Shown: positions 2-48,876 of the stretch, one piece after another | Layout of the letters: each line of letters opens with the position of its first letter | Position numbering within the stretch: the stretch's first letter is position 1 | NCBI GenBank assembly: GCA_020059045.1 | Contig: JAGVCW010000021.1 | Location: forward strand, 27,821-91,820 | Reading direction: 5' to 3' | Length of the DNA stretch: 64,000 nt | Origin: Minisyncoccota bacterium | GTDB lineage: Bacteria; Patescibacteriota; Minisyncoccia; Phycocordibacterales; Zambryskibacteraceae | Position numbers and translations under genes: made by a program | The notes under the pieces: generated by a model | Told to the model about the DNA's origin: nothing | The model's database searches: none | Seen by the model: the letters and a program-made list of their open reading frames with translations, nothing else

Positions 2-2101
2 ATTGATGCTGGTAAGACCACCACATCTGAGCGGGTTTTGTATTACACAGGTTCTCAGCACAAGATTGGAGAAGTGCACGAAGGAGACACTACTACAGAC
101 TGGATGGAACAAGAGCGTGAAAGAGGGATCACCATCACCGCAGCCGCTATTACATGCTTTTGGGCACCCACATATCTTTCTGCCGATGAACGCAAAAAGA
201 CAGAAAACAAATATCGTTTCAATGTCATAGACACACCCGGTCACATCGACTTCACAGTAGAGGTCAAGCGTTCGCTTCGAGTTCTCGATGGTGCGGTTGT
301 AGTGTTTGACGGAGTTGCAGGTGTAGAGCCTCAGTCAGAGACCAACTGGCGTTATGCAGAAGAAGCTCAAGTTCCTAGAATTTGCTTTATAAACAAGTTA
401 GACAGAACTGGTGCAAGTTTTGAGCGTTCATACAAATCGATTCTCGATAGACTTTCGAAGAAAGCAGTGCGAATGCAGATCCCACTTGGTGAAGAAGACG
501 CACACGAAGGTGTGATCGATCTTCTCAAGATGAAGATGTACAAGTTTGAAGGTGAGCTTGGCCGTGATGTAGTTGAACACGATATCCCAGCTGAACTCAA
601 GGCTGATGCGGATAAGTATCGTCATGAGCTTGTAGAGAGAATCGTAGAAAACGATGACGGCCTAATGAGCGCGTATCTAGAAGGTCGTGAAGTAGCACTC
701 GAAGATTTAAAGAAGACATTGCGTAAAGCTGTTATCGAAAACAAAATTTTTCCTGTTTTTACAGGCTCTGCTCTCAAGAACAAAGGTGTACAACTAGTGC
801 TTGACTCAGTTGTAGACTATCTTCCATCTCCACTCGATATCCCACCAATCAAAGGAGTGGATCCTCGCAATGGTGAAGAAGTAATACGCCATGCATCAGA
901 CACGGATCCCTTCGCGGCCCTTGCTTTCAAACTTCAAGCAGATCCATTTGTCGGTCAACTCACATTTTTCCGAGTATACTCGGGAACAATCGAGGCTGGA
1001 ACATATTTATATAATTCAACCACAGGTGAGAAGGAGCGCCTTGGCCGCATAGTGCGTCTCCAGGCAAATGATCGTGAAGAGGTGAAGAAAGTTTACGCTG
1101 GAGAGATTGCAGCCGCAGTAGGACTCAAAAATGCTAAAACATCTCACACTTTTTGCGATGAAGACCATCCTATAATCCTCGATCAGATTACATTTCCAGA
1201 ACCCGTTATCTCACTGCGTATTGAACCTAAGACCAAAGCTGATCAGGAGAAGATGGGACTTGCGCTCAAACGTCTTTCAGACGAGGACCCAACATTTAGA
1301 ATCAAGTCAGACCAAGAGACTGGTGAAACAGTGATCATGGGAATGGGAGAGCTACATCTTGAGATCATTGTTGACCGAATGAAGCGGGAGTTCAGCGTTG
1401 AAGCAAATGTTGGTAAGCCACAAGTGGCCTACAAGGAAACAATCATGGGTGAGGCAGAGGTTGAGAACAAGTACATCAAGCAGTCAGGAGGTAAGGGTCA
1501 GTATGGTCACGTTAGAATAACTATCAAGCCTCTTGAGAAAAGAGATCCAGAAGCGAAAGTTCCTAAGAATGTCAAAATTTCTGAAGGCTTTGAGTTTATA
1601 GACTCGATTAAAGGAGGTGTTATCCCACAAGAGTTCATCCCAGCTGTTGAGAAGGGAGTTAAGGAAGCGATGGAGCGTGGGGTTACTGCTGGATACAAAA
1701 TGACAGATATTTCATGTGAGCTAACGTTTGGAAGTTATCACGATGTTGACTCCTCAGAAATCGCTTACAAGATAGCAGCATCACAAGCTTTCCAGGAAGC
1801 TGCAAGAAAAGCAAAGCCAGTTATTCTTGAACCAATTATGAAAGTAGAAGTGGTGGTACCAGACAAGTTCATGGGTGACATCACAGGAAACCTATCGTCA
1901 CGTCGTGGCCAAGTGGAAGGTATGGAAGAGCGTGGAGAGCTAAAAGTCATTCGTGCCAAGGTTCCTCTGGCAGAAATGTTTGGCTATGTAACAAGTCTCC
2001 GATCAATGACCGAAGGTCGTGGATCTTCTACCATGGAATTCGATCACTACGAGGTGGTACCGGCTAACGTGGCGTTATCTATTATTGAATCTAGGAAATA
2101 A
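2..2101 (+). CDS. fusA: Translation elongation factor G; 5' end lies upstream of the window
   Basis: Frame is open from nt 2 ([17 protein letters not shown]..). GTPase motifs DTPGHIDF and NKLDR, then EF-G domains through to TAA at 2099. Confidence 0.95.
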
Positions 2102-2171
2102 AATAAGTTACTACTCGTAGTATTACCACTTCTCGCCCCGTACGAAATCCGCCGCTTATCTGTGGTAGTTA

Positions 2172-2200
2172 TTGACTTATGGAGTATTAGTCTGTATAAT
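2172..2200 (+). promoter_or_regulatory. Sigma70-type promoter
   Basis: TTGACT (2172-2177), 17-nt spacer, TATAAT (2195-2200). Confidence 0.6.
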
Positions 2201-2234
2201 TTACAAAGATTTAGAACCTCTAATGGGAGGCAAC

Positions 2235-2549
2235 ATGTTTTATTGGTGGGAGCGAACTTGGGAAGAAACAGATATAAGAATTTTCTTAGGAATGTTTGTC
2301 TTTCTCGGCTGGGTTTATTCCTTCTTCGCTTTTATTCACCGGGGGAGTGATATTCATAATGATTTTTATGGTTTGGTGCTTGTTTTTGGTTTTGCATTAT
2401 TCTGGGGCCTACTTTCTTTTTCAGCTTCTTGGAGTGTCTATCCGCGCAAGATGGCTCCGTTCCTCCTAGCTGCTCCATTTGTTGGGCTCATCATGGGTCT
2501 TGTTCCTTACCTGCTTACATACATAATTATACAAATTGCAGGGACGTAG
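2235..2549 (+). CDS. Small multi-pass membrane protein, function unknown
   Basis: ATG at 2235 follows GGGAGG and lies downstream of the 2172 promoter. The product is hydrophobic and a terminator follows. Confidence 0.55.
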   Translation: MFYWWERTWEETDIRIFLGMFVFLGWVYSFFAFIHRGSDIHNDFYGLVLVFGFALFWGLLSFSASWSVYPRKMAPFLLAAPFVGLIMGLVPYLLTYIIIQIAGT

Positions 2550-2579
2550 AAAATTTGCAGCAGTAACTTCAAGTACACT

Positions 2580-2602
2580 CCACGATGATATCGTGGTTTT
2601 TT
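2580..2602 (+). terminator. Intrinsic terminator
   Basis: CCACGAT..ATCGTGG stem followed by TTTTTT. Confidence 0.7.
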
Positions 2603-2669
2603 CATATAAAAAATTACTAAATAAAAATCTCCCGCTTCTCGAGTAGAGAATGGGAGATGCGGATTGAGG

Positions 2670-3170
2670 TTAATCTTTGATAGGAACTTCATCAGTGCTA
2701 CTCGCTCCGAAGATTCGTACGGGGTCTGCATTTTCCTGTCTTGAAAGATTTATCTCGTACTGATACAACAATGTGGGCAAAAGATATTTTTGAAGAAACT
2801 TTGCAAGGAGAGCAAGTTTCTCCTCTGGCGATTTGCCGAATGAATATATTGGCCCCCACAAATCTTCTTCGAAGAAAAGAGTTGCTTCGAAATATTCACT
2901 AGACACTATTGTCTCATGTGCCTTGCCACCTTTCTCATGACCTTCGTGTGTTTTACCATTGAGTTTAAGATGGTTTAGGATAATACCAGTAAGTGCAAAA
3001 AGATAGTCACTCCACTTAAGCTCGCTATGTTCAGTTCCAATCAAAAGCATTTCTCTACTTGCTTTTTCGAGCAGATGCTGCCTCTGCATTTCGCGTCTTT
3101 GCCATGCTGGCATTGTATTCGGCATTCGCCTCTCCTTTGGATGTAGGTACTTCTTGATCGAGCCTATCAC
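2670..3170 (-). CDS. Hypothetical protein
   Basis: 166-codon ORF. A terminator hairpin (TCTCCC/GGGAGA plus T-run on the minus strand, 2623-2657) follows it. I recognise no motif. Confidence 0.5.
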   Translation of the reverse strand: MIGSIKKYLHPKERRMPNTMPAWQRREMQRQHLLEKASREMLLIGTEHSELKWSDYLFALTGIILNHLKLNGKTHEGHEKGGKAHETIVSSEYFEATLFFEEDLWGPIYSFGKSPEEKLALLAKFLQKYLLPTLLYQYEINLSRQENADPVRIFGASSTDEVPIKD

Positions 3171-3254
3171 TCAAGTTTAAAAAAATCAATAAAAAGTTGA
3201 CAAGTATAGAACTTTATTTTACTCTTTCTCATAGAATGAATCCTTGGAGGAAGA

Positions 3255-3722
3255 GTGAAAGGAACGAGGGCAAGCCAGATAGAAGCCAAAGCAAGAAGCT
3301 TGGCAGGTTCAATACACCACCTTCTTGAGCGTGGCGAAGGACTAGTTGTAAATGTCCATATATCGAAACGTGTTAGTTCTCGAATTCAAGTAAGGGACGG
3401 CAGAATGAAATCTACTCGCCGTACGGAAGGACAGTTAGCCAATAGTGAGTGGAAACGTTTATTGAAACTTAGCCACAAGTTGTCTACTCAACTCTGGAAA
3501 GAGAAGGGAATAAATCCTATGTGTGACCTTGTAGCTATGCTTGCCAGAAACGGAAATAAACCTGTTCTGATTGGGAATATATGGACGAATTGGCCCGCTA
3601 GTCTTGGGTTTTGGTCTTTTCGAGATAGATTGAACGCTCTAATTCGTGACGAAGGAATGATGGTTCGTTTGCAGTACCTCAATCGTGACGACAGGCGAGT
3701 TAAATTTTTTAGGGTCAAGTAA
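3255..3722 (+). CDS. Hypothetical protein
   Basis: GTG start preceded by GGAGGA, with TTGACA about 55 nt upstream. No recognisable motif. Confidence 0.5.
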   Translation: MKGTRASQIEAKARSLAGSIHHLLERGEGLVVNVHISKRVSSRIQVRDGRMKSTRRTEGQLANSEWKRLLKLSHKLSTQLWKEKGINPMCDLVAMLARNGNKPVLIGNIWTNWPASLGFWSFRDRLNALIRDEGMMVRLQYLNRDDRRVKFFRVK

Positions 3723-3831
3723 CTGCACGGTATTTTATATGATGGCCGTGTTTTTTATACCTAGACTTTTCTTGATTTACCTGTAATCTCAAAAAAAGAA
3801 GCTCACTTACAATCTGCCACCAAGGTTCTTC

Positions 3832-4422
3832 ATGACTTATATTTCGGAGGGAGATCGTCGGTTCTGGCAAAGGAAGTACCCAGAGTTGACTGACCCGAAG
3901 AGATGGGATGATAAAGTCTGGAAAAGTGTAAAAATTGGAATGCACGCATCTCCAAATGCTTTGATAGCAGAAGTACGAGAAAAAGGTTTTGAAGTGGGAG
4001 AAGAAACTGTGCACATCTTACATAGTGTTACTTCAGAACCACGAACAGTTGAGCTCGTTCGTATGGAGAAGTGGAATATCACTCGCTGCATCACGCCAGG
4101 CATTGATGAGGATTGGTTGGCGAGACATCTCCCGATCTTTGGTCTAGAACCTGCAAACCCAGAAATTGCACTTGCACTACGCATGGACTACAGCGATCAG
4201 CCAGAAGGTGAAGAATTGGGAGTAGTTGTGGAAGATGCAAGAATTTGGCAGTTCGATCCTTCAGAGCTAGTCCATACAGGTGAGGCTCGTCCAGGTATAA
4301 TTTCACTAAAAAATCTGAAGGGAAGTAAGCAAGTGAGAATCTGGACGGGGGATTACACTTCTGCTCCATGGAATTTTGCCCCAGTGTATGATTGGGTCTT
4401 TGCTCGAGTAACTCCAAGATGA
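3832..4422 (+). CDS. Hypothetical protein
   Basis: 196-codon ORF ending in TGA. No recognisable motif; the start is uncertain. Confidence 0.45.
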   Translation: MTYISEGDRRFWQRKYPELTDPKRWDDKVWKSVKIGMHASPNALIAEVREKGFEVGEETVHILHSVTSEPRTVELVRMEKWNITRCITPGIDEDWLARHLPIFGLEPANPEIALALRMDYSDQPEGEELGVVVEDARIWQFDPSELVHTGEARPGIISLKNLKGSKQVRIWTGDYTSAPWNFAPVYDWVFARVTPR

Positions 4423-4506
4423 CCATATATTGTCTTGGTTTTTTGTTTTCGTAGTGATCTTTTCCTCAACATAGAGTATTCTGGAGCGAGAGGCTTTCAT
4501 CCCAAA

Positions 4507-4923
4507 ATGGAGGCAGATATGTCAAAGAAACTTCGTAAGCAAGTATTGGGCGAGGCTACAACAGTTGTGCGTCGCGTAACATCCGTGCCACAGCGTGAGC
4601 TAGCAGAGTCAATAGGGATTGATATAAGCAATTGCACAATTGAAAATGCAAAACCAGTTATTGCTAATCGGCTTAGAGACGAGGCTTGGGAACTTGTAGA
4701 AAGGAACAGAATAGTTCCAGGATTAAAGTGTCTTTGTGATGGCGTACCATGCATTGTACAAAAGATTGGTAGTACAGCCCGCGGGTGGGGTAACCCTGGT
4801 GCGATAGTTGTAGTTCGTAAGCTTACTGAGCGTCCATGGACCGGCCATGTACGTCCATCGAGACTTACTGAATTCGATTACTCTCACCCAGTTTCCGTCG
4901 AGCCTAGAACCGCTGCCCCATAA
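4507..4923 (+). CDS. Hypothetical protein
   Basis: I set the start to the internal ATG at 4507 (MEADMSKK..). A GCTGC/GCAGC hairpin plus T-run follows the stop. Confidence 0.45.
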   Translation: MEADMSKKLRKQVLGEATTVVRRVTSVPQRELAESIGIDISNCTIENAKPVIANRLRDEAWELVERNRIVPGLKCLCDGVPCIVQKIGSTARGWGNPGAIVVVRKLTERPWTGHVRPSRLTEFDYSHPVSVEPRTAAP

Positions 4924-9225: not shown

Positions 9226-10065
9226 ATGAAACATTACAAACCAACAACCAAATCGCGAAGACAGATGACCGGTATAGACTACGGGAAAGTTTTGACCGCG
9301 AAAGATCCTTTGAAAAGTCTTACTCATGGAACTAAGCGTGATGTAGGCCGCAACCACCATGGTCGTGTTACAACACGTCACAAGGGAGGTGGGCACAAGC
9401 GTCTTTTCAGAGACATTGATTTTACATACAACAAATTTGATATTCCATTCAAAGTTTTAACAGTAGAATACGATCCAAACAGAACTGGTTTCATTGGCAT
9501 TGTAGTCTACAAGGATGGAGAAAAGAGATATGTCTTACTCCACAAAGGAGCGCGTGTTGGTGATACCTATATAGTTTCAGCTAAGGCTCCAGAGACAGTG
9601 GGCAACCGCCTGCCACTTGGCAAAATCACAGTGGGTACTTTCGTGTACAACGTAGAAGTTAAACCTCGTGGAGGTGCAAGGCTTGCAAGAAGCGCAGGTA
9701 ACTACATAGAAGTTGTTGCAAAGGATGCAGGCTACGTGGATCTTAAAATGCCATCTACAGAAGTAAGAAAAGTTTTAGAGACTTGCTGGGCGACAATCGG
9801 TGAAGTATCAAACGATGAGAACAGACTAGTAAATATCGGAAAAGCTGGAAGAAGTCGCTGGCTTGGTATAAGGCCTACTGTTCGTGGTTCTGCTATGAAC
9901 CCAGTAGATCATCCACACGGTGGAGGAGAGGGTCGTTCAGGACGCGGACGACGTCGAGCAGTGAGTGCATTTGGCAAACCAACAGGCAAGGGGCAGAAGT
10001 CTCGTACTCCAAAGAAATATTCAAACAAATTTATTGTTCGTCGCAGAAAAGTAGGAAAGAAGTAG
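9226..10065 (+). CDS. rplB: 50S ribosomal protein L2
   Basis: GRNHHGRVTTRHKGGGHKR and HPHGGGEGR signatures. Confidence 0.96.
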   Translation: MKHYKPTTKSRRQMTGIDYGKVLTAKDPLKSLTHGTKRDVGRNHHGRVTTRHKGGGHKRLFRDIDFTYNKFDIPFKVLTVEYDPNRTGFIGIVVYKDGEKRYVLLHKGARVGDTYIVSAKAPETVGNRLPLGKITVGTFVYNVEVKPRGGARLARSAGNYIEVVAKDAGYVDLKMPSTEVRKVLETCWATIGEVSNDENRLVNIGKAGRSRWLGIRPTVRGSAMNPVDHPHGGGEGRSGRGRRRAVSAFGKPTGKGQKSRTPKKYSNKFIVRRRKVGKK

Positions 10066-10154: not shown

Positions 10155-10182
10155 TAAAAAAGCCCCGCATGTTTATGGGGCT
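10155..10182 (-). terminator. Intrinsic terminator of the minus-strand MYG1-like gene
   Basis: AGCCCC/GGGGCT stem, with a T-run on the minus strand (A-run at 10155-10160). Confidence 0.65.
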
Positions 10183-10186
10183 ACGG

Positions 10187-11155
10187 TTATACTGTATCAA
10201 GCACAGCTTGTATCTCTGCGGCCAGTGCATTGGCTTCAGCCGCGTCTCTACTCTCATTTTCCTCAAGTTGAGCAGAGTCAACTGGTACTTCTCCAGGCAG
10301 AAGTGCAAGTTCAGCAAGTCGCAAAGCACCCTCTCTACTCTCGGCTACGATTAGGTATCGGTTTTGGTGGCAAAACACGGCATCTCCTACCCCGGTGATT
10401 TCCTGAAGTTCAAGACCTCTCATACCTGCCCACTCTCTTGGTAACAAGCGAGGCGAAGTTGTATCAGTAGCTCTGTGCCAGCGTTTCACTGTCTGTACGA
10501 GCCAGCCGACCCTTTTGGGGTACACGACGAGGACTATTTCTGGGAAGTTTCTACTTACGTAGTGATCCCAACGGCATGAGTCATCAAGGAGTAAAACCTG
10601 TGGGCTTAAGTGCTTCTCTACAGCTCTCTTGACCACCTCTTCTCCTCGAATCTCTTCTTTTGCGCGGAAGATTGCACCACTTATGTTTGCTCGTGCAAAC
10701 GCAAGAGCAATATCCCAGTCACTTGGCTTAAATGTAGCTACTGCACTTGAAATGCTGTATGGCCGGATTTCACCAGCTTTGTATCTTACCAGAGTATACC
10801 TGTTGTCTGCCGCATCTATGGGTATAACCATGTGCCTCTCAATTTCTTCAGCTATCCGAGTGTCTTGAGCAATTCGCAGTCCGAAATGTTTCCATACAAG
10901 ACCGAAGGCAGCGTATGGAACACCATTTGCTCGTCTACCAGCACCTCCTTGCATATGGTGATCGAAGTCTAGAGTTTCTGGGTTGTACACTCCTCCTACA
11001 TCAATACGTACATTGCTTTCAGCTATTACTCTTGGATCGCGGCTACGCACCACAAGAGCTTCCATGTATTCCGGAAGCAATTGTAAGGCCGCGATCGCGT
11101 ACACCTCGTCTGCATGGATGGGTCCGTCGTGGGTCACAATTTGCACAGACAACAC
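10187..11155 (-). CDS. MYG1/UPF0160-family metal-dependent hydrolase-like protein
   Basis: VTHDGPIHADEVYA, VVRSRDP and IDVGGVYNPETLDFDHH match the family layout I recall (HxGxFHxDE .. DVGG..(Y/F)DHH). Confidence 0.7.
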   Translation of the reverse strand: MLSVQIVTHDGPIHADEVYAIAALQLLPEYMEALVVRSRDPRVIAESNVRIDVGGVYNPETLDFDHHMQGGAGRRANGVPYAAFGLVWKHFGLRIAQDTRIAEEIERHMVIPIDAADNRYTLVRYKAGEIRPYSISSAVATFKPSDWDIALAFARANISGAIFRAKEEIRGEEVVKRAVEKHLSPQVLLLDDSCRWDHYVSRNFPEIVLVVYPKRVGWLVQTVKRWHRATDTTSPRLLPREWAGMRGLELQEITGVGDAVFCHQNRYLIVAESREGALRLAELALLPGEVPVDSAQLEENESRDAAEANALAAEIQAVLDTV

Positions 11156-11369: not shown

Positions 11370-11397
11370 TTGACAAATAAATTGTATATGTTATACT
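11370..11397 (+). promoter_or_regulatory. Sigma70-type promoter
   Basis: TTGACA (11370-11375), 16-nt spacer, TATACT (11392-11397). Confidence 0.6.
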
Positions 11398-11479
11398 ATA
11401 GGTAGTAGTAAGTAGTACATTTCAGTTGCAGTTCCCCGTTCAAGGTAGTCCACTCAGCACACCTTATGGAGGTATTACC

Positions 11480-12199
11480 ATGGCTAGCAAGAAGAAGCAG
11501 CAGGTAGCAACGAGCCCGGTTCCCAGCATGCAGGCCGCGGTTGCCACGATGGCGGAAGAGGCTCCCGCCGAGAGCAGGCAGTTCTCTTCGAGCCAGCCGA
11601 AGTGGTCCCCGACTCAGTTCATTGAGACCCTGGGGAAGATCAAGGAAGAACTCCCGGCCGCCGTGTCGAACTTCAAGATCGTGAAGAAGATCGTGGGTCT
11701 CGAGATGGACGGCAAGGATGAGATGGCCTTTCGGCAGATGATTCAGCTCGCCGGGGCCGTTGCTACCAAAGCATCCCAGAAGGCGGACGCGGAAGACCCA
11801 TCAAAGGTGTATCTGGATGCCAGGAAGGTCCAGGCTGCGCTCACCGCATGTGAGCGTGCCAATTCCAATCTGGCACGCACCTTCGACAGGTACATCGGGA
11901 ACTGGCGGAAGCGGGCTGACACCATGATGTCGAACGCAAGGCGCAAGGACCCGGACGTGATCGAGCGCGAGAGTGACACAATCGCGGACAACATGGAGGC
12001 ACTGGATGAGGCACTTGAAGGAAAGAAGCCTCGTCAAGAGGTCCTCGAGATCTACAACAGGACCTTCACCCATCTTCGCGAGCTCTCAAAGGAAGCAACG
12101 GCGCTTGCTACTGAAGCTTCGAGGAGAGAGCAGATCGAAACGATCGGCTCACTCGGGGACGACATCCTCGACTCTCTCGCGGAACTCGACAGCATCTAA
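11480..12199 (+). CDS. GC-rich helical orphan protein (239 aa)
   Basis: ATG at 11480 follows GGAGG. It has its own promoter and terminator. Hand counts give 42/60 and 38/60 G+C in two lines, far above the flanks. Confidence 0.6.
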   Translation: MASKKKQQVATSPVPSMQAAVATMAEEAPAESRQFSSSQPKWSPTQFIETLGKIKEELPAAVSNFKIVKKIVGLEMDGKDEMAFRQMIQLAGAVATKASQKADAEDPSKVYLDARKVQAALTACERANSNLARTFDRYIGNWRKRADTMMSNARRKDPDVIERESDTIADNMEALDEALEGKKPRQEVLEIYNRTFTHLRELSKEATALATEASRREQIETIGSLGDDILDSLAELDSI

Positions 12200-12217
12200 G
12201 TGCTGCGAGCAGTAGTA

Positions 12218-12254
12218 CCCCACGAAAAACCCCCAAGGTATCGTGGGGTTTTTC
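12218..12254 (+). terminator. Intrinsic terminator
   Basis: CCCCACGA / TCGTGGGG 8-bp stem followed by TTTTTC. Confidence 0.7.
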
Positions 12255-12472
12255 TTTTATTGCAATTGCGGAGAATACCATGACAGCTAGGCTGCATGGG
12301 ATGAATCCGCAAATACATACTATATGTCGGCGGAGCCGACTCCTCTTGCAACAAAGTTTGCCCTGATGCCTCGTCCTGCTACTCGCCGAGGCTTTGCGAG
12401 GGAATAGCTTACTGCGATTATAGGACGAGGCCAATTTTATTAAGATAATAATCTTTCCTGTATAATTTATAT

Positions 12473-13441
12473 ATGGAATACAAAACTATTATTTTGCCTA
12501 CTAGGCCTCAGGTGGATACTGTTATTTCTATATTCGTATTAAAGCACTTTGGTGAAAGTTTCTTCCCTGGTATTAAGACTGCTAGCTATGAGTTCATGTC
12601 CAACTTACCAGCTGGTGCGAGCGAAGAGAGCTTGGCAGAGGAAGGAAGGCTCCCAATAGATATTGGTGGTGGACGATTTGATCATCACAACAAAGAGGAG
12701 AAAACCACTGTTCTAAATCTTTTGACTAGCTTTCTTGCTCAAGGGAATAATCCTGCTTTAATAAAACTCAAGAAGTTTGTAGAAAGAGATGATTTTTATG
12801 GTAAAGGAATAATATCCTCTGACCCCCTTGATCGTGCTTTCGGTTTGCCCGGGCTTATTGCTTGTCTTAATAAAAAGTATTCAAGTAACCCAGCGAAAGT
12901 GCTGGATATAATTCTTCCAGTTGTTGATGCGTACTACGAAGAAGAAGAGAAGAGGGCAATAGGAATGCCTCTTGAACTTAAGGAGAAAATAGCAAATGGT
13001 AAAGCTAGAGTATTTAATACAGAGCAGAGAGGCAGAAAACTTAAATGCATTTTCATAGAAAGCGATAACATAAGTCTACCGGGTTTTCTTCGATCTAAGA
13101 TTGGAGGGGAGCACGATGTGATTGCAATAAGGCTATCGTCTGGACACACAAATATTCTTACGAGTCTCAAAAATACAGTTGATTTGCGTTCACTCGCAGT
13201 GCTTATTCGCTTACAAGAAGCCGAGGCGCGAGGTGTGAAGCTAGATGGAGTGCCGGAAGATTTAGCAGTACCGGGTAAAATCGATGAAGTACTTAATTGG
13301 TACTACGATACAGCTACTAACTCTTTACTAAATGGTGGTCCTAATCCAAGTGAGACCGACCCAACGGGAATAGCATCTTTCGAATTTGAAAAAATAATGG
13401 AAATAGGGCTCTCTGAGAAACTCTGGTCTCCATCACGATAA
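12473..13441 (+). CDS. Divergent UPF0160/MYG1-like paralog that has lost the N-terminal metal motif
   Basis: Keeps IDIGGGRFDHH. Where the other copy has THDGPIHADE, this one has LPTRPQVDTV. Composition is AT-rich (20/60 G+C in line 12481). Confidence 0.45.
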   Translation: MEYKTIILPTRPQVDTVISIFVLKHFGESFFPGIKTASYEFMSNLPAGASEESLAEEGRLPIDIGGGRFDHHNKEEKTTVLNLLTSFLAQGNNPALIKLKKFVERDDFYGKGIISSDPLDRAFGLPGLIACLNKKYSSNPAKVLDIILPVVDAYYEEEEKRAIGMPLELKEKIANGKARVFNTEQRGRKLKCIFIESDNISLPGFLRSKIGGEHDVIAIRLSSGHTNILTSLKNTVDLRSLAVLIRLQEAEARGVKLDGVPEDLAVPGKIDEVLNWYYDTATNSLLNGGPNPSETDPTGIASFEFEKIMEIGLSEKLWSPSR

Positions 13442-13486
13442 GCCAAATACCCTTTATATTAGCCACGTAATGGTCTATAAAAATCC

Positions 13487-13515
13487 TTGACTTTTATAGA
13501 CCATTATGCTATTAT
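13487..13515 (+). promoter_or_regulatory. Sigma70-type promoter
   Basis: TTGACT (13487-13492), 17-nt spacer, TATTAT (13510-13515). Confidence 0.55.
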
Positions 13516-13564
13516 TATACAAGAACAGCAGTTTCACACACCGACCCTTTCACAAGGAGTTTGC

Positions 13565-14155
13565 ATGGTAAAAAGCAAGGAAGTCGTCGACCCCGCATTT
13601 GTCGGAGAAGTGGAAGCGGCGCTCGTGTACCTCACGGTGCCCGGCAATCTGAAGTATCTTATACCCGGGTGGGTAAAAGAGGCGGACTTCTCGAATACTC
13701 CAAAGTCCGAGCGCCAGATGGCCCCACGATCCGATAAGTTGTTCCAAGTTGCACAAGCGAGGATGGATGGGGTGCTCGGGGATCTTGCCGGCGCTGGTTT
13801 CCTCCCCTCTGAAGTGTTTTATCTGAATCGGGATGGTGGCGCGCGGCGGGTTCGTATCACATGCAAGCGCTTTGGCGCACCGCTGACACTCGATCAGGTG
13901 CAGTCTCTCATTCCCCTCACTACCGAGCGGATATGGGATGTGATGGCTCATCGGACGGCTGCTACCAGGAACATTCCATGGGAGCACATTTCGATCAATG
14001 CCGGACGCCCCGATCATGCTCCAGAAGGGGGATTCGAAGCGGTTCGCGTGGTCGAAGGTCGAGTCTCGGTAGTTTCCCTTCTCAACACGGACGAGCTGCG
14101 GAAGGCGTCTGAGTCCATCATCGGCCTCCTCGAATCGCTGCAGATAACACGCTAA
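13565..14155 (+). CDS. GC-rich orphan protein (196 aa)
   Basis: ATG at 13565 follows AAGGAG, downstream of the 13487 promoter, and a terminator follows. The 13550..14182 minus-strand ORF is its mirror. Confidence 0.55.
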   Translation: MVKSKEVVDPAFVGEVEAALVYLTVPGNLKYLIPGWVKEADFSNTPKSERQMAPRSDKLFQVAQARMDGVLGDLAGAGFLPSEVFYLNRDGGARRVRITCKRFGAPLTLDQVQSLIPLTTERIWDVMAHRTAATRNIPWEHISINAGRPDHAPEGGFEAVRVVEGRVSVVSLLNTDELRKASESIIGLLESLQITR

Positions 14156-14183
14156 TCCTCCTTGCGATAACAGGGGGGTCAAC

Positions 14184-14212
14184 GAGCCAGACAGAAATGT
14201 CTGGCTCTTTTC
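14184..14212 (+). terminator. Intrinsic terminator
   Basis: GAGCCAGAC / GTCTGGCTC stem followed by a T-run. Confidence 0.7.
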
Positions 14213-14219
14213 TATTTAA

Positions 14220-14246
14220 TTGACAACAAGTGTCTATTTCTATAAT
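14220..14246 (+). promoter_or_regulatory. Restart promoter for rpsS and the rest of the S10 operon
   Basis: TTGACA (14220-14225) and TATAAT (14241-14246) with a short 15-nt spacer. A GAAGCTC/GAGCTTT hairpin plus T-run follows in the leader. Confidence 0.5.
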
Positions 14247-14349
14247 ATCTTGAGAAGCTCATCCGAGCTTTTTGTATTCTAATTTTAGTTTTAGTAGCTG
14301 GGCAGGAGTAACCCTTCGACGAGCTCAGGGTAAAAATCTAAAGATTTTT

Positions 14350-14709
14350 GTGACACGATCATCAAAAAAAGGCCCCTATGTATATGAGCGCCTTCTGAAG
14401 AAAATTGAAGGCAAAAAGCCCGAGCAAGCTGGGGTTATTAAGACATGGGCAAGGGACAGCCAGATCGCTCCCGAGATGGTTGGCTACACATTTGGAGTAC
14501 ATAATGGTAAGGATCATATTGAAGTTTTTGTAACTGAAGACATGGTGGGTCATAGACTCGGCGAATTCTCACCTACACGTAAGTTCGTTAAACATGGCGG
14601 TAAGATGCAGAAAGAACTTGAGCAGAAGAAGAAAGAATCAGAAATAGCATCTGCTCAAGCGGCCAAAGCCTCTGTAAGTGCAGGAGCAAATACAGTACCG
14701 GCGAAGTAG
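14350..14709 (+). CDS. rpsS: 30S ribosomal protein S19 with a C-terminal tail
   Basis: I set the start to GTG 14350 (..[15 protein letters not shown]). [21 protein letters not shown] core. Confidence 0.9.
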
Positions 14710-15929: not shown

Positions 15930-16396
15930 TTGTTCTACTTGTTATAGTTGTTCTATATGTCAGAGAGATTTCAAGGATATAGGTTTGAAAAATTGGAAGT
16001 TTGGCAGGTGGGAATGCGTATAGTAAGTAAGGTATATTCAATTACGAAAAGGTTTCCTAAAGACGAGACCTACGCCCTGTCTGACCAGTTAAAAAGAGCA
16101 GCCACTTCGATAGTTTTAAACTTGGCAGAAGGCTCAGGACAGCCAACAAAAAAGTTATTCTCTCTTTATATTGAACGTGCCAAGTCCTCAACACTTGAAT
16201 GTGTGGCTTGTACAAAAATTGCTGTTCAGGAAAAACTTGTAGAACCTGATGAGGTTAAATCTTTGGAAGAGCTACTTGCGGAAGAGTATTTTAAACTTAT
16301 TGCGCTAGCAAAATCTATGAGGTAAGATCTTCCTACTCTAGCTTGTAACCTATCTAACACCTATAACAACTAGAACATATATAACACTTACAACCA
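15930..16396. repeat. Family-A hairpin element, copy A3, with an ORF inserted at its apex
   Basis: Left arm TGTTCTACTTGTTATAG pairs with right arm CTATAACAACTAGAACA. The apex ATGTCAGAG supplies ATG 15957 of the enclosed ORF. Confidence 0.65.
15948..16325 (+). CDS. Four-helix-bundle protein of the 23S rRNA intervening-sequence protein family
   Basis: YRFEKLEVWQ..FPKDETYALSDQLKRAATSIVLNLAEGSG..AKSSTLE matches the family pattern I recall. The start is TTG 15948 or ATG 15957. Confidence 0.75.
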   Translation: MFYMSERFQGYRFEKLEVWQVGMRIVSKVYSITKRFPKDETYALSDQLKRAATSIVLNLAEGSGQPTKKLFSLYIERAKSSTLECVACTKIAVQEKLVEPDEVKSLEELLAEEYFKLIALAKSMR

Positions 16397-19410: not shown

Positions 19411-19752
19411 ATGAACAAATTTTTATCTTTAGTAACGCGTATTCTGGGTGAGCTAGAATTTTCGCAAGAAAACAAAGAAAAAGTTGCATATGATCTCAAT
19501 CGCCTAATTATGACAAAGGTTGTCATAGCACTTCTTGATGAGGCCCCAGAGAATGTTCAAACTGAAGTTGAAAAACTTTTAAGTGCTGGTGAAACACTTG
19601 AAGTTGCAAATATCCTCAAGTCTACATTTACGACTGAAAGATTCGAAGAAGTAAGCCTTCATATTACTCGAGATGTGGTTCACAAATACTTAAGCGAATT
19701 GTTTGCAAAAACTCACAAGGAAAACAAAGAGAAACTTGTCGCTTCACTCTAA
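19411..19752 (+). CDS. Hypothetical helical protein
   Basis: 113-codon ATG ORF that ends at the hairpin shared with the convergent RNA gene. Confidence 0.4.
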   Translation: MNKFLSLVTRILGELEFSQENKEKVAYDLNRLIMTKVVIALLDEAPENVQTEVEKLLSAGETLEVANILKSTFTTERFEEVSLHITRDVVHKYLSELFAKTHKENKEKLVASL

Positions 19753-19780: not shown

Positions 19781-20281
19781 ACTTTTGTATAAAAACAAAC
19801 CCGCTCCTTGGTGAGGGCGGGCGATAGTGGGAAGAAAACTTCCAATGGTTTGGAAACTGCATGAAACCGGGTACTTCCTCCCTTTGTCTAGTCAATGGCG
19901 ATTGGGCGCCTATGACATCCTCTTGGCTGTAAACCTCGTAACTCACCATGAGTTACGGCAGGCTAACGCCAACTAAGCTGAGGACTTCGACTGGGCTGTC
20001 TCTGCACGTGGTCCCGAATGAGACGCCTAGTGAGCGAATGACCCGAACGCAGACTACCCGGTTTCACACTTTGTAATGAACTTATATCTTGCACTCTCTT
20101 TCGAGAGATGATTTCGTACCCTGGGGCGGCGAGCGGGCCGAAGCGCCGTCACGACCCCAGGGACTTCCTCGATATTTAACCTCTGATGCCGAGTACCGCA
20201 TCGGAGGCGATCCCCGTTAGGACGTAAGCGAATGCACCGGTTTAGGGCACATCACTGTATCCGAGCCCGCATGGGGGAGCT
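19781..20281 (-). ncRNA. Roughly 500-nt GC-rich structured RNA with RNase P RNA-like motifs; identity unresolved
   Basis: About 640 bp hold no ORF apart from one 66-aa shadow. Consensus promoter upstream; terminator CCCGC..GCGGG plus UUUGUUUUU at 19781-19811. GAAA-capped hairpin, 8-bp hairpin at 19928-19946, 12-bp long-range helix, and GAGGAAGUCC and ACCCGGUUUCA motifs. Confidence 0.6.
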
Positions 20282-20286
20282 TGTGA

Positions 20287-20314
20287 GCTTATGTATATTA
20301 TAGCATGTACACGT
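20287..20314 (-). promoter_or_regulatory. Consensus sigma70 promoter of the structured RNA
   Basis: The minus strand reads TTGACA (20314-20309), a 16-nt spacer, then TATAAT (20292-20287). Confidence 0.7.
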
Positions 20315-20592
20315 TATTTGTCAAGGAGTTTCTCATTATCTTTTCTGTGACACATGAAATATGGCTAAAACTAAGGCTTATTTGAATATCACTTTAAAGT
20401 AGAGGGAAATTTGTTGGCAAGTTCTTGAAATTATCCGCTTAACCCTTATTTTATTGACTTTATACGGCTCAATTGCTAAGCTGTTGCAAAGCTTTTGGAA
20501 GCTTTTTTCTTTACTTAATCGCTTCATTCGTCAATATTCTTCCTTTTGAGGGCTTTCGCTCATGCGAGGTCGCTAGAGGATAAACAATATTT

Positions 20593-20778
20593 GTGGCCAA
20601 GAAATCAGTTATAGCAAGATCAGTTAAAAAGCCTAAATTCTCGACTCGCATCGTGAGGCGTTGTTTCCGTTGTGGTCGAAAGCGTGGCTATATGCAAGAT
20701 TTTGATCTATGTAGAATATGTTTTCGCGAATTTGCAAATGAAGGCAAAATCCCGGGCGTTAAGAAATCAAGTTGGTAA
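20593..20778 (+). CDS. rpsN: 30S ribosomal protein S14, zinc-ribbon type Z
   Basis: 61 aa with a GTG start. [17 protein letters not shown] carries two CxxC pairs. Confidence 0.93.
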
Positions 20779-25009: not shown

Positions 25010-25486
25010 CTAGAGACCAGCAGCTACCCGCTCAGCTGGAACAAGGCAAATTGTACTATCGTTTTTGTTCTCACTAATTTCGTGGTATGACACAAACCAC
25101 TTTCTCCCATTCCAGTCTATCGTTTGGAATGGTCGGCACTGTTCTGCAATTTCTTCAGGAAGCTCGATATCAACGTCTGTTGCCCAAATGGGGGGAAGGT
25201 TTTTCCCCCGCCACCAAAAAGTTAATTGTGGAATAGAATATTTCTTAAAAACATCATTATCCATAATGCCATTTTCAAATACTTCCCCCGCACACATTTC
25301 TCTGTCTTCTCGTCGAAGTAAAGATAGTGGAACAGGTCCGTGCACCTCGTTTTCTGATTGAAGTCGGGAAAATGCTTGGAAAAACAATTTGCCGAGAGTA
25401 CTCTGAGGGTCAAGAGTAAGTGCGGCCGTCATTAGGGCCGGGTTTTCTTTTCCCATTTCACAAACTGCCGGCCAATTCATGTACAT
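25010..25486 (-). CDS. Hypothetical protein on the opposite strand between secY and adk
   Basis: 158-codon ATG ORF, less AT-rich than its neighbours. No motif. Confidence 0.5.
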   Translation of the reverse strand: MYMNWPAVCEMGKENPALMTAALTLDPQSTLGKLFFQAFSRLQSENEVHGPVPLSLLRREDREMCAGEVFENGIMDNDVFKKYSIPQLTFWWRGKNLPPIWATDVDIELPEEIAEQCRPFQTIDWNGRKWFVSYHEISENKNDSTICLVPAERVAAGL

Positions 25487-27109: not shown

Positions 27110-27127
27110 TTGTGTAATATTAACTTT

Positions 27128-27526
27128 ATGACAGAAGGATTATCACTAGAACACTTTGAAGAATCTCGACGACAAATAGACCCGCGTCCAACTATAGTTA
27201 ATGCCGAATTTGGAGACGAGTCTTCAGAGCCTGATTTCGAATCTCCATATGTTCCAGTGACTCTCCCAGAGGAAGATCTAAAGGTGGATGCAGCAACAAA
27301 GGAAAAGGAAGAGACGAGTTTCGAGCGAGAAATTCGTGAGAGACAAATTTCACAGCATGCAAATTATGAAATAGAAAGAAGTGGTTTCCAGGCAAGACTC
27401 GATGTACTTAGAGAAAGAGCAGATAATTACAAGAAAGCTGGGATGAGCCCCCACGAACTCGAAGAATCGAATCGAGAATTGAAAGACACAGAACATTTTG
27501 CAAAGTATATTACGCAAATGATCTAA
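27128..27526 (+). CDS. Acidic hypothetical protein
   Basis: ORF directly after map. I set the start to ATG 27128. Glu/Asp-rich with no motif. Confidence 0.4.
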   Translation: MTEGLSLEHFEESRRQIDPRPTIVNAEFGDESSEPDFESPYVPVTLPEEDLKVDAATKEKEETSFEREIRERQISQHANYEIERSGFQARLDVLRERADNYKKAGMSPHELEESNRELKDTEHFAKYITQMI

Positions 27527-28540: not shown

Positions 28541-28570
28541 TTGACTTTTCTACTCAGTCTATGGTATAAT
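28541..28570 (+). promoter_or_regulatory. Sigma70-type promoter with an extended -10
   Basis: TTGACT (28541-28546), 18-nt spacer, TGG-TATAAT (28562-28570). Confidence 0.6.
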
Positions 28571-28666: not shown

Positions 28667-29110
28667 ATGGAACCCTATTCCAGGCTCCAGTATGTCGTAC
28701 TCGTTCTCTGCAGTGTTATTACTCTCGGGACGATCCTCTTCATGCTCAATCGGCAGTACAAGATAAGAAAGGCGGGTGCATTTCAGGAGATCTTTGGTTT
28801 CAATCCCATGCAAACGTGGGTCGAGACTCCTATGACAAGGCACGAGCGTCAAGATAAAGTCAATCTTGCTCTAGAGCACCTGGCTATGATGCTCTCAGTG
28901 CAGACCCATCTCGCAGGACGTGAGTTTGGGCATCCTCCGACCGCAAAAGGCGTAAAGAAAATGTTCTGGCAGGCGCACAAGATTGCCCGCTCATGGGGAT
29001 ACCAAGTGAGAGGCAGTTGGACTGAGTATCTTGATGTGAATCCTCTGCAATGGTTAGTTCTCGGTCAATCGATCCATGCAGCGACAGTGGCAGCAGCAAA
29101 GAAACCATAA
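28667..29110 (+). CDS. Orphan protein with an N-terminal TM helix
   Basis: 147-codon ORF with its own promoter and terminator. The segment is flanked by the 25-nt inverted repeats. Confidence 0.55.
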   Translation: MEPYSRLQYVVLVLCSVITLGTILFMLNRQYKIRKAGAFQEIFGFNPMQTWVETPMTRHERQDKVNLALEHLAMMLSVQTHLAGREFGHPPTAKGVKKMFWQAHKIARSWGYQVRGSWTEYLDVNPLQWLVLGQSIHAATVAAAKKP

Positions 29111-31360: not shown

Positions 31361-34300
31361 ATGAAAAAGATTGTCATAGCAGTTATTTTGCTCGCAGTGT
31401 TGCTGTTGTCTGGTCCGATTTCGGCTCAAACCCTAGAAGCACAAACCATAAACGACATGTATGCGGTAGTGTTGTCGCTTCAAAACTTGATTCGTCAGTT
31501 AGTTGCGCTTGTTTCTCAGGGAGGAAATCTTGCGCAAGTTACGAACATAGTCACAGTAACTGGGTCAGTCTCTCCTGTACCAGTAACTCTTGGTGACCAG
31601 GCCAATCTTACATGGGACTCAACTAATACAACATCCTGTCTGCTTGATATAGGTACAGCAAACATAACAGGCCAGGCAGTGTCTGGCACATACACTGTGA
31701 CACCAACAAAGTCGATGGATTATATAGTCAAATGTACTGGATCGACTGGCTCAAAATTCGTAAAAGTCCCAGTAGTCGTGGTGGCAGCCTCAACTCCTTC
31801 CACCCCGTCCACTCCAGCAACTCCTTCCACCCCGTCCACACCATCTACTCCATCTACTCCATCTACACCATCTACACCATCTACACCATCAACACCAGCA
31901 ATTCCAAGTGGTCCAATAGTTTTACCAGATTTACCACAAACCTTTTCCGTGTCGGTTCCAGCTCAAACTGGAACAGTCATCTCAGTTCCGGCCGGGAACG
32001 CTGCAGCTTTTCAAGCGGCACTCAACAGTGCAGTCCTGGGTGATGTGATCGAGCTCCAAGCAGGCTCCACCTACACCGGAACATTTACGTTTCCCAATAA
32101 AACTTCTGGCAGCGGCTGGATTACAGTACGCTCCAGTGCCCACAACAGTCTCCCTCAAGGAATTCGAGTAGACCCCGGGGATGTTTCTAAAATGGCTAAA
32201 ATTATCACTAATGCCGTTGGATCAGGGGGGGCAGCATCAGGTTCTGCTATAATTTTTGCTAATAGTGCTCATCATTATTATCTACTAGGCTTAGAAGTGA
32301 CTGCGGCCACTGCAGCCAAGATTGCCACAGGTCCTACTATCCAGATGGACTTTACTACTCCTCTTTCTAATCAGCCCACGAACATTACACTCGATCGCAT
32401 GTATGTTCACGGTCATTCTAATTTAGACATGACCAGATGTATTCTAGCCAACGGTGCCTACATCGCTGTTATCAATAGTTATGTTTCTGAATGTCACTCT
32501 GGAGCGGATGCTCAAGCCATCGAAGTATGGACTGGATCTGGACCATTTAAATTTGTAAATAACCACCTGGAAGCGTCCGGCGAAAATATCATGTTCGGGG
32601 GTGCAGATCCCAAAGTGCAAGGACTCATTCCGTCGGACGCCGAAATTCGTGGAAATTATATTTATACTCCCATTGCCTGGGGGCCCTCGACTCCGTGGAC
32701 TAGAAAAAACTTATTTGAGACTAAAAATGCGCAAAGAGTACTTCTCGAAGGTAATATTCTAGATGGATCTTGGGCAGATGGGCAAGTGGGGTATGCTATT
32801 GTGCTCAAATCTTCAGATCAAGGAGGTGTTGGCACCGGGTGTACTTGGTGTGCATCAAAAGATATTACCGTAAGGTACAACATTATTCGCAATGCAGCCG
32901 GTACAGTGGATATAAGTGGAAAGCAAAACGCTATCGGTACTGCTCCGGCCCTTACCGAACGAATCCTAATTGAACACAACATTTTTGAAAATATTAATGT
33001 TGCCCCATACACCGGGGCTGCCCGACTGCTTAGTTTTAGCCTCGATGTGCGTGATCTTATATATAGGAATAACACTGTTAATACCACGGGCTATCTTCAG
33101 GGTATGATATTAGTGGGTGGAACTCCATCGAACTCTCTGAGTTTCCCGGGTGTCACAAACTTTGAATACAAGGACAATATCACTCCTTTTGGAGAATTCG
33201 GTATATTTGCCACTAACCTAATCGGGGAAGCCCTTTTTGCTGGCTCGCCAAACATTGCTGGTATCTCTAATTATTCGGGTAACGTGACTTACAACAATAC
33301 GTCAGCAAATAAGTACAATGCAACTACTCATCCCACGACTAAACTTTATTCAAGTTACAGCGCAGCAGTGGCCAGTGGTAAAGGCGCAAATACAGCGGCT
33401 GTGCTTGCGGCTACTAAGAATGCGCAAAACGGCGGAGGCGCTGGGACCCAGCCACCTCCTCCACCTCCTCCACCCCCGCCTAACACAACTGTTCCTACCC
33501 CTCCTTCTCCCGTTGCCATTACAACCTATGTTACACCTCCGGCAAACGGAGAGTCGACGCCTCCTTCTGCGGTAAAAAATTTACGTACTTGGGGAGTGTG
33601 CGACAACATGATCGGAGTTACTTGGGATCACGCTACAGATAATTACGGAGTGGCGGGTTATATTATTTCTCGAGACGGACAACCCTATACTATGACGGTG
33701 AGAAGTAGACCTCTCGGCACAACCGGAGGTGTTCCCAACAATACTGCCACCACCATAAGAAATTGGGTCACTGACTCCGGCCGGCAACCCAACACCTCGC
33801 ATTCTTACTCCGTGCAAGCGTTCGATACCTCCAACAACAAAGGCCCCGTGGCTACTTTCTCTGCCAAGACATCAACGGGCGGTTGTTTTGACCCGACCCC
33901 CCCAGTGCCGATGAATCTTAGACTTACAGGTTCGACATTAAATAGCGCGGGGTTAACTTGGGATCCCGTTACAGATTCCCGTTATAACGTAGTTCAATAT
34001 AGAATATATCTGGATTTTCCGCTCTTTACGCCTTTTCCTTTTCCCGCAGCACCTACATTTATGAATCCTGCTACTCCTCCTTTTGTCTATGGGAATCTTC
34101 CCTCAGCTCCTAGTCACAATTTCTTTGTTTCCTCTCGTAGCAACCTTGGTAAAGAGGGTGACTGGACTATGCCTCTTATTATGACTCCCGGTCAAACCAC
34201 GCCTGCTCCTACCGTGATGCTATCCGCTTCACCAAGCTCTGTGATTCCAGGTGGACAAACAATTCTCACCTGGTCTTCTACTAATGCAACAAGCTGTACC

Positions 34301-48739: not shown

Positions 48740-48802
48740 AATTTCTTTCTAATTAATAATTTGAAACTACGTTTAGTATATCAAGTTATGCAAGAATATT
48801 TG

Positions 48803-48876
48803 TCCACCCTCCACGATTTGAACGTGGGACCCTCGAGGTATAAGCTCGATGCTCTAACCAACTGAGCTAAGGGTGG
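48803..48876 (-). tRNA. tRNA-Ile with a genomically encoded UAU anticodon
   Basis: Hand-folded cloverleaf: CCACCCT ta GCTC agttggtta GAGC a TCGAG CTTATAC CTCGA gggtc CCACG ttcaaat CGTGG AGGGTGG a. No CCA is encoded. Confidence 0.8.

Follow-up and report, generated by a model that had tools for sequence, protein, structure and literature searches.

The 64,000-nucleotide stretch of DNA analysed here, below called the window, comprises positions 27,821 to 91,820 of contig JAGVCW010000021.1 (assembly GCA_020059045.1, Minisyncoccota bacterium) and consists mainly of the str-S10-spc ribosomal supercluster on a bacterial chromosome. The S10 operon is split between rplB and rpsS by an insert of 4.3 kb, which includes one oppositely transcribed gene. 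Two open reading frames (ORFs) of this insert, named here ORF A and ORF B, are orphan genes with a conspicuously high guanine-plus-cytosine (GC) content. This high GC is a stationary, gene-specific state which resides mainly at third codon positions and is independent of the GC of the host. We put at about even odds (a probability of roughly 0.5) that the two are long-resident, lineage-restricted genes, in which the GC content of the third codon position (GC3) is held up by a force acting on the coding sequence, and not fresh imports. The insert and its boundary genes are listed below; the promoters and terminators are sequence predictions.

9226-10065, plus strand: rplB (L2), the last gene of the upstream S10 half and left boundary of the insert (Pfam Ribosomal_L2_N E 2.5e-28, Ribosomal_L2_C E 2.7e-49; GC3 0.34)
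~10158-10186, minus strand: terminator hairpin and T-run of the MYG1 gene, as read from the sequence
10187-11155, minus strand: MYG1/UPF0160 metal-dependent phosphoesterase/exonuclease gene (MYG1_exonuc, PF03690; GC 0.49, GC3 0.40)
11232-11205, minus strand: promoter-like site of the MYG1 gene (TTGACT-N16-TACTCT with extended TG)
11370-11479, plus strand: ORF A promoter (11370-11399) and 80-nt 5' untranslated region (UTR), with a GGAGG ribosome-binding site at its end
11480-12199, plus strand: ORF A, orphan of 239 amino acids (aa), the strongest GC outlier in the window
12218-12254 (core 12231-12248), plus strand: intrinsic terminator of ORF A, CCCCACGA ... TCGTGGGG followed by TTTTT
12255-12472, plus strand: structured non-coding spacer of 218 nt, about 50% GC, recognised by its folding against shuffled sequences
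12473-13441, plus strand: AT-rich gene of 322 aa (GC 0.405, GC3 0.32)
13455-13564, plus strand: probable terminator hairpin of the 322-aa gene (13468-13504), with the promoter (13487-13515) and 5'UTR of ORF B
13565-14155, plus strand: ORF B, orphan of 196 aa, the second GC outlier
14184-14217, plus strand: intrinsic terminator of ORF B, a 10-bp stem and then a T-run
14220-14248, plus strand: new promoter ahead of the downstream operon half (TTGACA, 17 nt, TAATAT)
14251-14274, plus strand: terminator-like leader hairpin before rpsS, with a T-run, directly after the promoter
14341-14709, plus strand: rpsS (S19), right boundary of the insert, probably starting at GTG 14341 (Pfam Ribosomal_S19 E 6e-34)

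The first half of the supercluster runs in the order EF-G, EF-Tu, S10, L3, L4, L23, L2 and the second in the order S19, L22, S3, L16, L29, S17, L14, L24, L5, S8, L6, L18, S5, L15, SecY, Adk, Map, past which giant surface proteins, IF3-L35-L20, SmpB, transfer-messenger RNA (tmRNA), FtsH, RecG and GuaA are found. L15 stands directly after S5 with no L30 between them, which is typical of the Candidate Phyla Radiation (CPR), and the host is probably a Patescibacteria/CPR bacterium. The nearest genome matches to a gene of the region are a metagenome-assembled genome labelled 'Patescibacteria group bacterium' and a bin labelled 'uncultured bacterium'. Splitting rplB from rpsS and supplying a new promoter and leader is an unusual rearrangement in one of the most conserved gene orders of bacteria.

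Sliding-window GC, GC3 and codon-usage analyses, with the 64-kb window as the compositional background for all z scores, single out ORF A and ORF B as the strongest outliers. The window as a whole has 42.4% GC, and in 500-nt windows the mean is 0.424 with a standard deviation (sd) of 0.041. The two highest peaks of the 64 kb, at 11501-12000 (0.604) and at about 13601-14100 (0.578), fall on the two ORFs, in agreement with the hand counts of single lines in the initial annotation. Against gene medians of 0.422 for GC and 0.370 for GC3, ORF A has a GC of 0.583 (0.58/0.43/0.75 at the first, second and third codon positions, GC1/GC2/GC3; robust z of GC3 +7.8) and ORF B of 0.569 (0.66/0.44/0.61; +5.1). 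No other gene fits the synonymous codon usage of the window as badly (z -4.2 and -4.7), and in ORF A AAG and AAA occur 18 and 1 times, CAG and CAA 11 and 1 times, and ATC, ATT and ATA 11, 2 and 0 times. The neighbouring genes range from 0.40 to 0.49 in GC, and the 322-aa gene between the two ORFs is AT-rich, as the same annotation had it.

The fraction of glycine, alanine, arginine and proline codons (GARP) is 0.28 and 0.31 in the two ORFs, against a mean of 0.24 (sd 0.05). Because this is only a mild rise, the GC excess is mostly synonymous and an origin in amino acid composition was rejected. The excess is confined to the coding sequence. The 5'UTRs have 41-51% GC, that of ORF A (45%) lying well under its coding sequence, and GC3 is elevated throughout, the first and the last 30 codons included.

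The initial annotation had extended the picture of GC-rich cassettes in an AT-rich background to several other orphans of the window, and this wider mosaic holds in part. Three further orphans are GC-rich to a moderate degree:

28667-29110, plus strand: 147 aa with an N-terminal hydrophobic helix; GC3 0.53, z +3.4; consensus promoter at 28541-28570
56285-57286, minus strand: GC3 0.52, z +3.2; the true start is probably near 57076
57440-58015, plus strand: GC3 0.52, z +3.0; promoter at 57335-57363

The last two form a divergent pair. None of the three has a family match in Pfam, NCBIfam, PADLOC or PHROG or a viral relative in IMG/VR. The orphans at 3832-4422 (z -0.1), 4435-4923 (-0.5), 25010-25486 (+0.3) and 39240-39992 (+0.7), which had been taken by eye as less AT-rich than their surroundings, have an ordinary GC3. 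All five genes of high GC3 are among the 21 ORFs without a Pfam match and none is among the approximately 50 annotated genes (Fisher p = 0.0016). In all-vs-all BLASTP the orphans are unrelated to one another; they are thus not copies of one mobile cassette, and a single shared cassette family was discarded. Adjoining the divergent pair is a gene with a SWIB/MDM2 domain (55910-56164, minus strand; Pfam E 1.8e-32), the GC3 of which is slightly raised (0.48). The SWIB domain is known mainly from eukaryotes and chlamydiae. This gene and the orphan pair at 56.3-58.0 kb may form a small, compositionally distinct block.

Relatives of the two main genes are few. ORF A is a singleton in 5.8 billion protein clusters, and an exhaustive scan of 1.84 billion representatives gave three relatives (42, 34 and 27% identity), that is, a family of four, carried by the loci L005, L006 and L007. 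ORF B has only two relatives (86 and 57% identity), found in L001 (ENA) and L002 (Logan), which are independent assemblies from other samples. Scans of JGI metagenomes and a profile word search detected no further family members. All five relatives stand in an AT-rich, CPR-like context and behind the same promoter.

Gene order around the relatives is preserved as far as their contigs reach. L002 carries, in this order, the C-terminus of the 322-aa gene, a promoter, ORF B (57%), a terminator, the promoter and hairpin of rpsS and the first part of rpsS itself, and its flanking protein shows 71% identity. Both L001 and L002 conserve the -35 and extended -10 boxes of ORF B, L001 has the same terminator hairpin after ORF B, and the gene is present at all three loci recovered, with no empty slot among them. 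In L007 a mechanosensitive (MS) channel gene and its terminator precede the promoter, an ORF A relative (27%), a terminator and a homolog of the 322-aa gene (60%). The MS-channel gene and the same promoter are also found upstream of the ORF A relatives in L005 and L006. The L005 locus lies just downstream of rplJ-rplL, and its ORF A relative is followed by a second GC-rich orphan, orf233. As a homolog of ORF B, orf233 is unsupported (BLASTP E 0.96, 23% identity in a MAFFT alignment).

This recurrence bears on whether the GC-rich genes are real. An island of high GC in an AT-rich genome classically signals structured RNA, the source of the DNA is a metagenome assembly, and the ORF A transcript folds better than its shuffles (z -3.3), all of which would suit an artefact, either a chimeric assembly or structured RNA genes taken for ORFs. 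We regard such an artefact as highly improbable. The junctions from AT-rich promoter to GC-rich ORF, terminator and rpsS recur in L001 and L002, and the analogous junctions of the ORF A family in L005, L006 and L007. Since independent assemblies share them, a chimeric contig is ruled out. Three-base periodicity is strong (GC3 far above GC2), both ORFs have ribosome-binding sites, and Rfam searches came back empty both at the gathering threshold and with E values up to 1, so that with so strong a coding signal a structured RNA gene was rejected as well.

For ORF B, coding status follows from its divergence. Compared with the 86%-identical relative, the synonymous rate (dS) is 0.56 and the nonsynonymous rate (dN) 0.084 in the sense frame, a ratio of 0.15, and the ratio of the antisense frame exceeds 1; ORF B is a plus-strand protein-coding gene under purifying selection. 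The long mirror ORF which the initial annotation saw on the opposite strand does exist, at 13550-14182 in the in-register antisense frame, and is open because ORF B has no TTA, CTA or TCA codons. It is broken in both L001 and L002 and, also given its antisense ratio, was rejected as a gene. No match to ORF B was found in Pfam, NCBIfam, PADLOC or PHROG, and its AlphaFold model (predicted local distance difference test, pLDDT, 51) is unusable, being too poor for a fold search.

ORF A has a confident AlphaFold model (pLDDT 83) and a conserved family, and on these grounds is a coding gene as well. Its product is predicted to be a soluble helical-bundle protein, in which residues 1-36 form a disordered, basic tail rich in lysine, serine and alanine and the rest a bundle of long helices. 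The fold search retrieved only generic long-helix proteins (best E 0.22, template modelling score, TM, 0.33). Searches of Pfam, NCBIfam, PADLOC, PHROG and BFVD gave no match to ORF A, and neither ORF matches a PDB sequence. A defence system was considered and set aside, as the PADLOC scan produced noise-level matches only. ORF A repeatedly adjoins the phosphoesterase-like 322-aa gene, which hints at a link to RNA metabolism.

The high GC3 persists across relatives. ORF B has values of 0.61, 0.60 and 0.64 in the three genomes, and the adjacent 322-aa gene 0.33 in both genomes in which it is measurable. In the ORF A family GC3 is 0.75, 0.82, 0.77 and 0.80, and that of the neighbouring genes runs from 0.32 (L007) to 0.47-0.60 (L005). 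Over these distances synonymous sites are saturated: the proportion of synonymous differences (pS) is 0.78 between ORF B and its L002 relative, and 0.55-0.66 within the ORF A family, where the ceiling for that composition is approximately 0.67. A foreign gene drifting under the mutation pressure of the host would have reached the host GC3 by then. GC3 has not moved in that direction. In ORF B the polarised third-position changes comprise 16 from G or C to A or T (S>W) and 12 in the reverse direction (W>S), implying an equilibrium GC3 of about 0.54. Decay towards a GC3 of 0.35 would predict 74% S>W changes (3:1; p = 0.035, up to approximately 0.06).

The initial annotation had explained the cassettes by repeated acquisition of single genes from a higher-GC donor. 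In its present form this would mean separate, fairly recent horizontal acquisitions, from one or more such donors, that have not yet ameliorated. Several features invite it: the composition resembles that of a genome of about 60% GC at all three codon positions, the codon-usage fit is the worst in the window, the genes of high GC3 are all orphans, and the units are self-contained between conserved genes, as with phage morons (PMC3594210). Indeed, the description of self-contained promoter-ORF-terminator orphans of foreign-looking composition fits both ORF A and ORF B. The donors may also be unsampled. Against this, approximately 15 billion proteins, among them the clusters and representatives mentioned above, together with IMG/VR, INPHARED and PLSDB, contain no homolog of either gene outside AT-rich contexts and none in other kinds of organisms, phages or plasmids. 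ORF B keeps the same slot down to 57% identity with undiminished GC3 at saturated synonymous sites, and the ORF A family keeps a GC3 of 0.75-0.82 in four genomes whose own values are 0.32-0.60. The promoters and 5' leaders are of native type and AT-rich. No integrase, transposase or phage gene was found in the window, no transfer RNA (tRNA) target lies at the insert (9.9-14.5 kb), and insertion scars there amount to short chance repeats with no flanking direct repeats. We thus consider recent acquisition quite unlikely. A phage or plasmid origin was rejected on the same searches: neither the two main ORFs nor the three orphans of moderately raised GC3 have relatives in IMG/VR, and INPHARED, PLSDB, PHROGs and BFVD yielded nothing.

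The expression signals themselves are those of the host. The ORF A promoter (TTGACA, a spacer of 16-18 nt, TATACT with an extended -10 TG) matches 11 of 12 consensus positions, and that of ORF B (TTGACT, 17 nt, TG-C-TATTAT) is followed by a 49-nt 5'UTR with an AAGGAG ribosome-binding site. Since tuf and rpsS are preceded by promoters of this same pattern, those of the two orphans are of the bacterium's normal strong type.

Among L005, L006 and L007 the two sides of the ORF A promoter have evolved very differently. The MS-channel proteins are 83-86% identical (dN 0.12, dS 1.4-2.0), and the ORF A-family proteins are 17-35% identical with a dN of 0.7-1.1, which is 6-9 times the rate of the neighbour. 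DNA similarity extends through the MS-channel gene, the terminator and the -35 and -10 boxes and collapses right after the -10 box. Such a pattern could come from a hypervariable cassette slot, in which the 5'UTR and ORF are swapped among CPR genomes by homologous recombination through the flanks and GC-biased gene conversion keeps the GC high. The sharp collapse of similarity speaks for it, as do flank proteins of about 86% identity around so divergent a gene and the different content after the ORF A relative, which is orf233 in L005 and the 322-aa homolog in L007. G/C endings are, moreover, favoured across all amino acids, CpG-containing codons included, which resembles a general compositional pressure. 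Known effects ascribed to bacterial gene conversion are much smaller than the GC3 excess of +0.25 to +0.45. The 5'UTRs within the variable tract have 41-51% GC and not the 0.6-0.8 expected of a converted tract, although UTRs may have constraints of their own. An association of recombination with gene GC across bacteria, and the hypothesis of GC-biased gene conversion, have been described (PMC4450053).

With the host near saturation (dS 1.4-2.0), the amount of change in the ORF A family fits vertical descent under weak constraint, and divergence alone leaves the swapping of alleles unproven. ORF B (57% identity) and its flank (71%) have diverged at roughly the same pace. No silent donor cassettes were found in the 64-kb window by tblastn and blastn with all family members, and an antigenic-variation site of the pilE/pilS or vlsE type was rejected since no partial silent copies turned up in the same searches. 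Cassette exchange is in our view unlikely. The mobile gene pool proposed in the initial annotation thus retains the differing slot content of L005 and L007 and the collapse of similarity at the cassette start in its favour, but the divergence needs no exchange of alleles; a shared pool of genes for these slots is possible and not needed.

We return to the reading of ORF A and ORF B as long-resident, lineage-restricted genes. It takes as its starting points their composition, coding status, synteny, synonymous saturation and stationarity. The genes would have entered the lineage once, long ago, or have arisen within it, and since then a force on the coding sequence itself would have kept G/C-ending codons in place. 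That force may be synonymous-site selection, which could favour, for instance, stable transcripts or the translation of accessory proteins expressed at high levels. Meanwhile the ORF A protein would be free to change fast in sequence. The new promoter and leader hairpin would restart the operon at rpsS.

Several points weigh against this reading. GC1 and GC2 are also somewhat raised in both ORFs, as foreign origin predicts. There are only three relatives of ORF A and two of ORF B, mostly on contigs of 0.7-4.5 kb, so the 'same slot' rests on few genomes, and the rplB side of the insert is seen in none of the relatives' contigs. The change of content after the ORF A relative leaves room for exchange. 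The test on polarised changes is weak, with 28 events and a saturated outgroup, and the compositional background is the window and not the genome. High expression of ORF A and ORF B is inferred from promoter consensus matches. The analysis identified no particular agent of selection. The codons of the ribosomal proteins and EF-Tu are AT-rich (GC3 0.34-0.41), which makes ordinary translational selection an unlikely source of the G/C endings. Selection for extra mRNA structure as a common cause was rejected because z scores from permuting synonymous codons are not consistently extreme: -3.0 in ORF A, -0.6 in ORF B, +1.0 and -1.1 in the orphans starting at 28667 and 57440, with a window mean of -0.49 (sd 1.46). 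Even the value of ORF A is matched by rpsJ, rplW and rpsC.

A deviant GC is routinely read as a sign of recent transfer; here it outlasts synonymous turnover in at least two gene families. Should this hold genome-wide, composition-based detection of transfer would mislead in small, AT-rich genomes of symbionts, and an unexplained force keeping particular coding sequences GC-rich would be indicated. Very tentatively, and with more doubt than confidence, we raise the broader idea of a class of genes, present in some CPR/Patescibacteria genomes, that are lineage-restricted, strongly promoted, fast-evolving and actively held at a GC3 of about 0.6-0.8 whatever the GC3 of the host (0.32-0.60). If such a class existed, its composition would be an equilibrium of the genes themselves rather than a remnant of transfer, and it would imply selection on the nucleic acid itself, for instance for transcripts that resist AU-directed RNases or toxin endoribonucleases or that persist in dormancy, and deviant GC would not be a reliable clock of horizontal transfer in these genomes.

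The 322-aa gene between the two orphans is a member of an uncharacterised family whose motif G-G-G-x-F-D-H-H-N-K bears a weak resemblance to the metal site of MYG1/DHH proteins. The gene has no match in Pfam or NCBIfam and resembles the MYG1 gene of the insert only at the level of the motif (BLASTP E 0.016). The MYG1 gene (10187-11155) aligns with PF03690 over the full profile (1-318 of 318; E 1.2e-50, 173 bits against a cut-off of 22.1), and the 322-aa gene does not show such a full-length MYG1/UPF0160 match. Homologs of the 322-aa gene are found in L003 (51%), L004 (31-34%), L007 (60%) and L002 (71% over the C-terminus). In L003 and L007 they carry, fused at the N-terminus, a domain that has two H-x-T motifs and may be a 2H phosphoesterase; the L003 domain matches tRNA_lig_CPD with E 5.7e-4, below the Pfam cut-off. 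In L003, which comes from a genome of 36% GC, an unrelated orphan (265-1077, plus strand) lies directly upstream of the 322-aa homolog (1145-2569, plus strand). This orphan has a GC of 0.50 and a GC3 of 0.49, where the adjacent genes have 0.19-0.30, and a weak similarity to a cold-shock domain (E 0.05) is seen at its C-terminus. A GC-rich orphan beside this gene family thus recurs.

The spacer in front of the 322-aa gene (12255-12472) has a minimum free energy of -71.5 kcal/mol (z -4.2), which none of 200 shuffles equals, and includes the long stem CCUCGUCCU...AGGACGAGG. It has no Rfam match and is absent in L007, where the equivalent gap holds a terminator only. It may be a leader of the 322-aa gene or a small RNA. 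Downstream of the gene, the hairpin at 13468-13504 is a 14-bp inverted repeat with the -35 box of ORF B in its loop. L001 has it too (4-40), its pairing maintained by compensatory changes in the two arms. It probably terminates the 322-aa gene, and it overlaps the promoter of ORF B. Similarly, in the rpsS leader (14220-14341) L002 (1128-1205) keeps the promoter, the rpsS start and the hairpin, the latter with a compensatory change (AAGCTCATCCGAGCTT vs AAGCTCTCTGGAGCTT). This hairpin looks like an attenuator for the S19-L22-S3 half of the split operon.

Extra genes are found at many other junctions of the supercluster (2172-4923, 15948-16325, 19411-19752, 25010-25486 and 27110-27526), which is unusual for so conserved a gene order. 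The interval between fusA and tuf holds five ORFs without a Pfam match, and that between rpsC and rplP a gene for a four-helix bundle of the 23S-IVS/Avd-like type (TIGR02436, E 3e-22). Single orphans stand before rpsH, between secY and adk (on the opposite strand) and after map. A region of approximately 650 nt at 19950-20600 is free of genes. Near 20110 its GC rises locally to 0.72 over 60 nt, and opposed consensus promoters lie at 20324 (minus strand) and 20454 (plus strand). Although the region gave no Rfam match at the gathering threshold, it may contain an unannotated small RNA. ARAGORN reports a tRNA-Ser with anticodon ACT at 61097-61186 and a tRNA-Ile with anticodon TAT at 48802-48876, both on the minus strand; an A at the first anticodon position of a serine tRNA is unusual in bacteria, which makes the former call doubtful. 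Two giant secreted proteins of 1461 and 1506 aa are encoded at 31361-35746 and 49018-53538 (both plus strand), with Ser/Thr/Pro-rich linkers, repeated Ig-like modules and peptidoglycan-binding-like repeats. In both genes GC2 is very high (0.56) and GC3 normal, so that, unlike in ORF A and ORF B, the anomaly is driven by amino acid composition.

Among known systems, a first comparison is with phage morons. They are independent promoter-gene-terminator units of deviant GC situated between conserved phage genes (PMC3594210). Like them, ORF A and ORF B are single ORFs, each with its own sigma-70 promoter and intrinsic terminator, a deviant GC and conserved flanks. Unlike morons, they lie in a chromosomal ribosomal-protein operon, with no phage or prophage genes nearby and no relatives in IMG/VR, INPHARED, PHROGs or BFVD, and in the relatives recovered they have been kept in place across deep divergence with a stable GC deviation.

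The second comparison is with horizontally acquired islets. In the amelioration model, which Lawrence and Ochman are said to have proposed in 1997, the GC3 of acquired genes drifts to the value of the host. As orphans of atypical composition and codon usage, ORF A and ORF B look like such islets. Their GC3, in contrast, is unchanged after saturation and independent of the host, and donor homologs, decay, mobility genes and scars were all looked for here and not found; in the absence of these signatures they fall outside the class of acquired islets despite the likeness. In addition, bacterial ORFans and recent acquisitions are usually richer in A+T than their genome, as Daubin and Ochman reportedly observed in 2004, whereas ORF A and ORF B are richer in G+C.

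Recombination-associated GC enrichment is a third candidate for comparison. The excess in ORF A and ORF B is far beyond any size known to have been reported for it, and their adjacent UTRs are not GC-rich, which sets them apart. What they share with it is a gene-specific rise of GC3 that does not depend on optimal codons and, in ORF A, a fast gene between conserved flanks (PMC4450053).

The fourth comparison is with the ORFan accessory genes of CPR/Patescibacteria genomes. ORF A and ORF B are similarly small, contain no known domain and have no homologs outside a narrow related set, and ORF A diverges fast (dN 6-9 times that of its neighbour). They differ from such genes in that slot and strong promoter are both conserved and GC3 is stationary at 0.6-0.8, in genomes of 32-50% GC; a limited full-text search of the literature gave no description of an ORFan with this combination. 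ORF A and ORF B are taxonomically restricted (ORFan) protein-coding genes and, more specifically, compositionally atypical orphan cassettes that stand outside both the moron and the recent-transfer classes.

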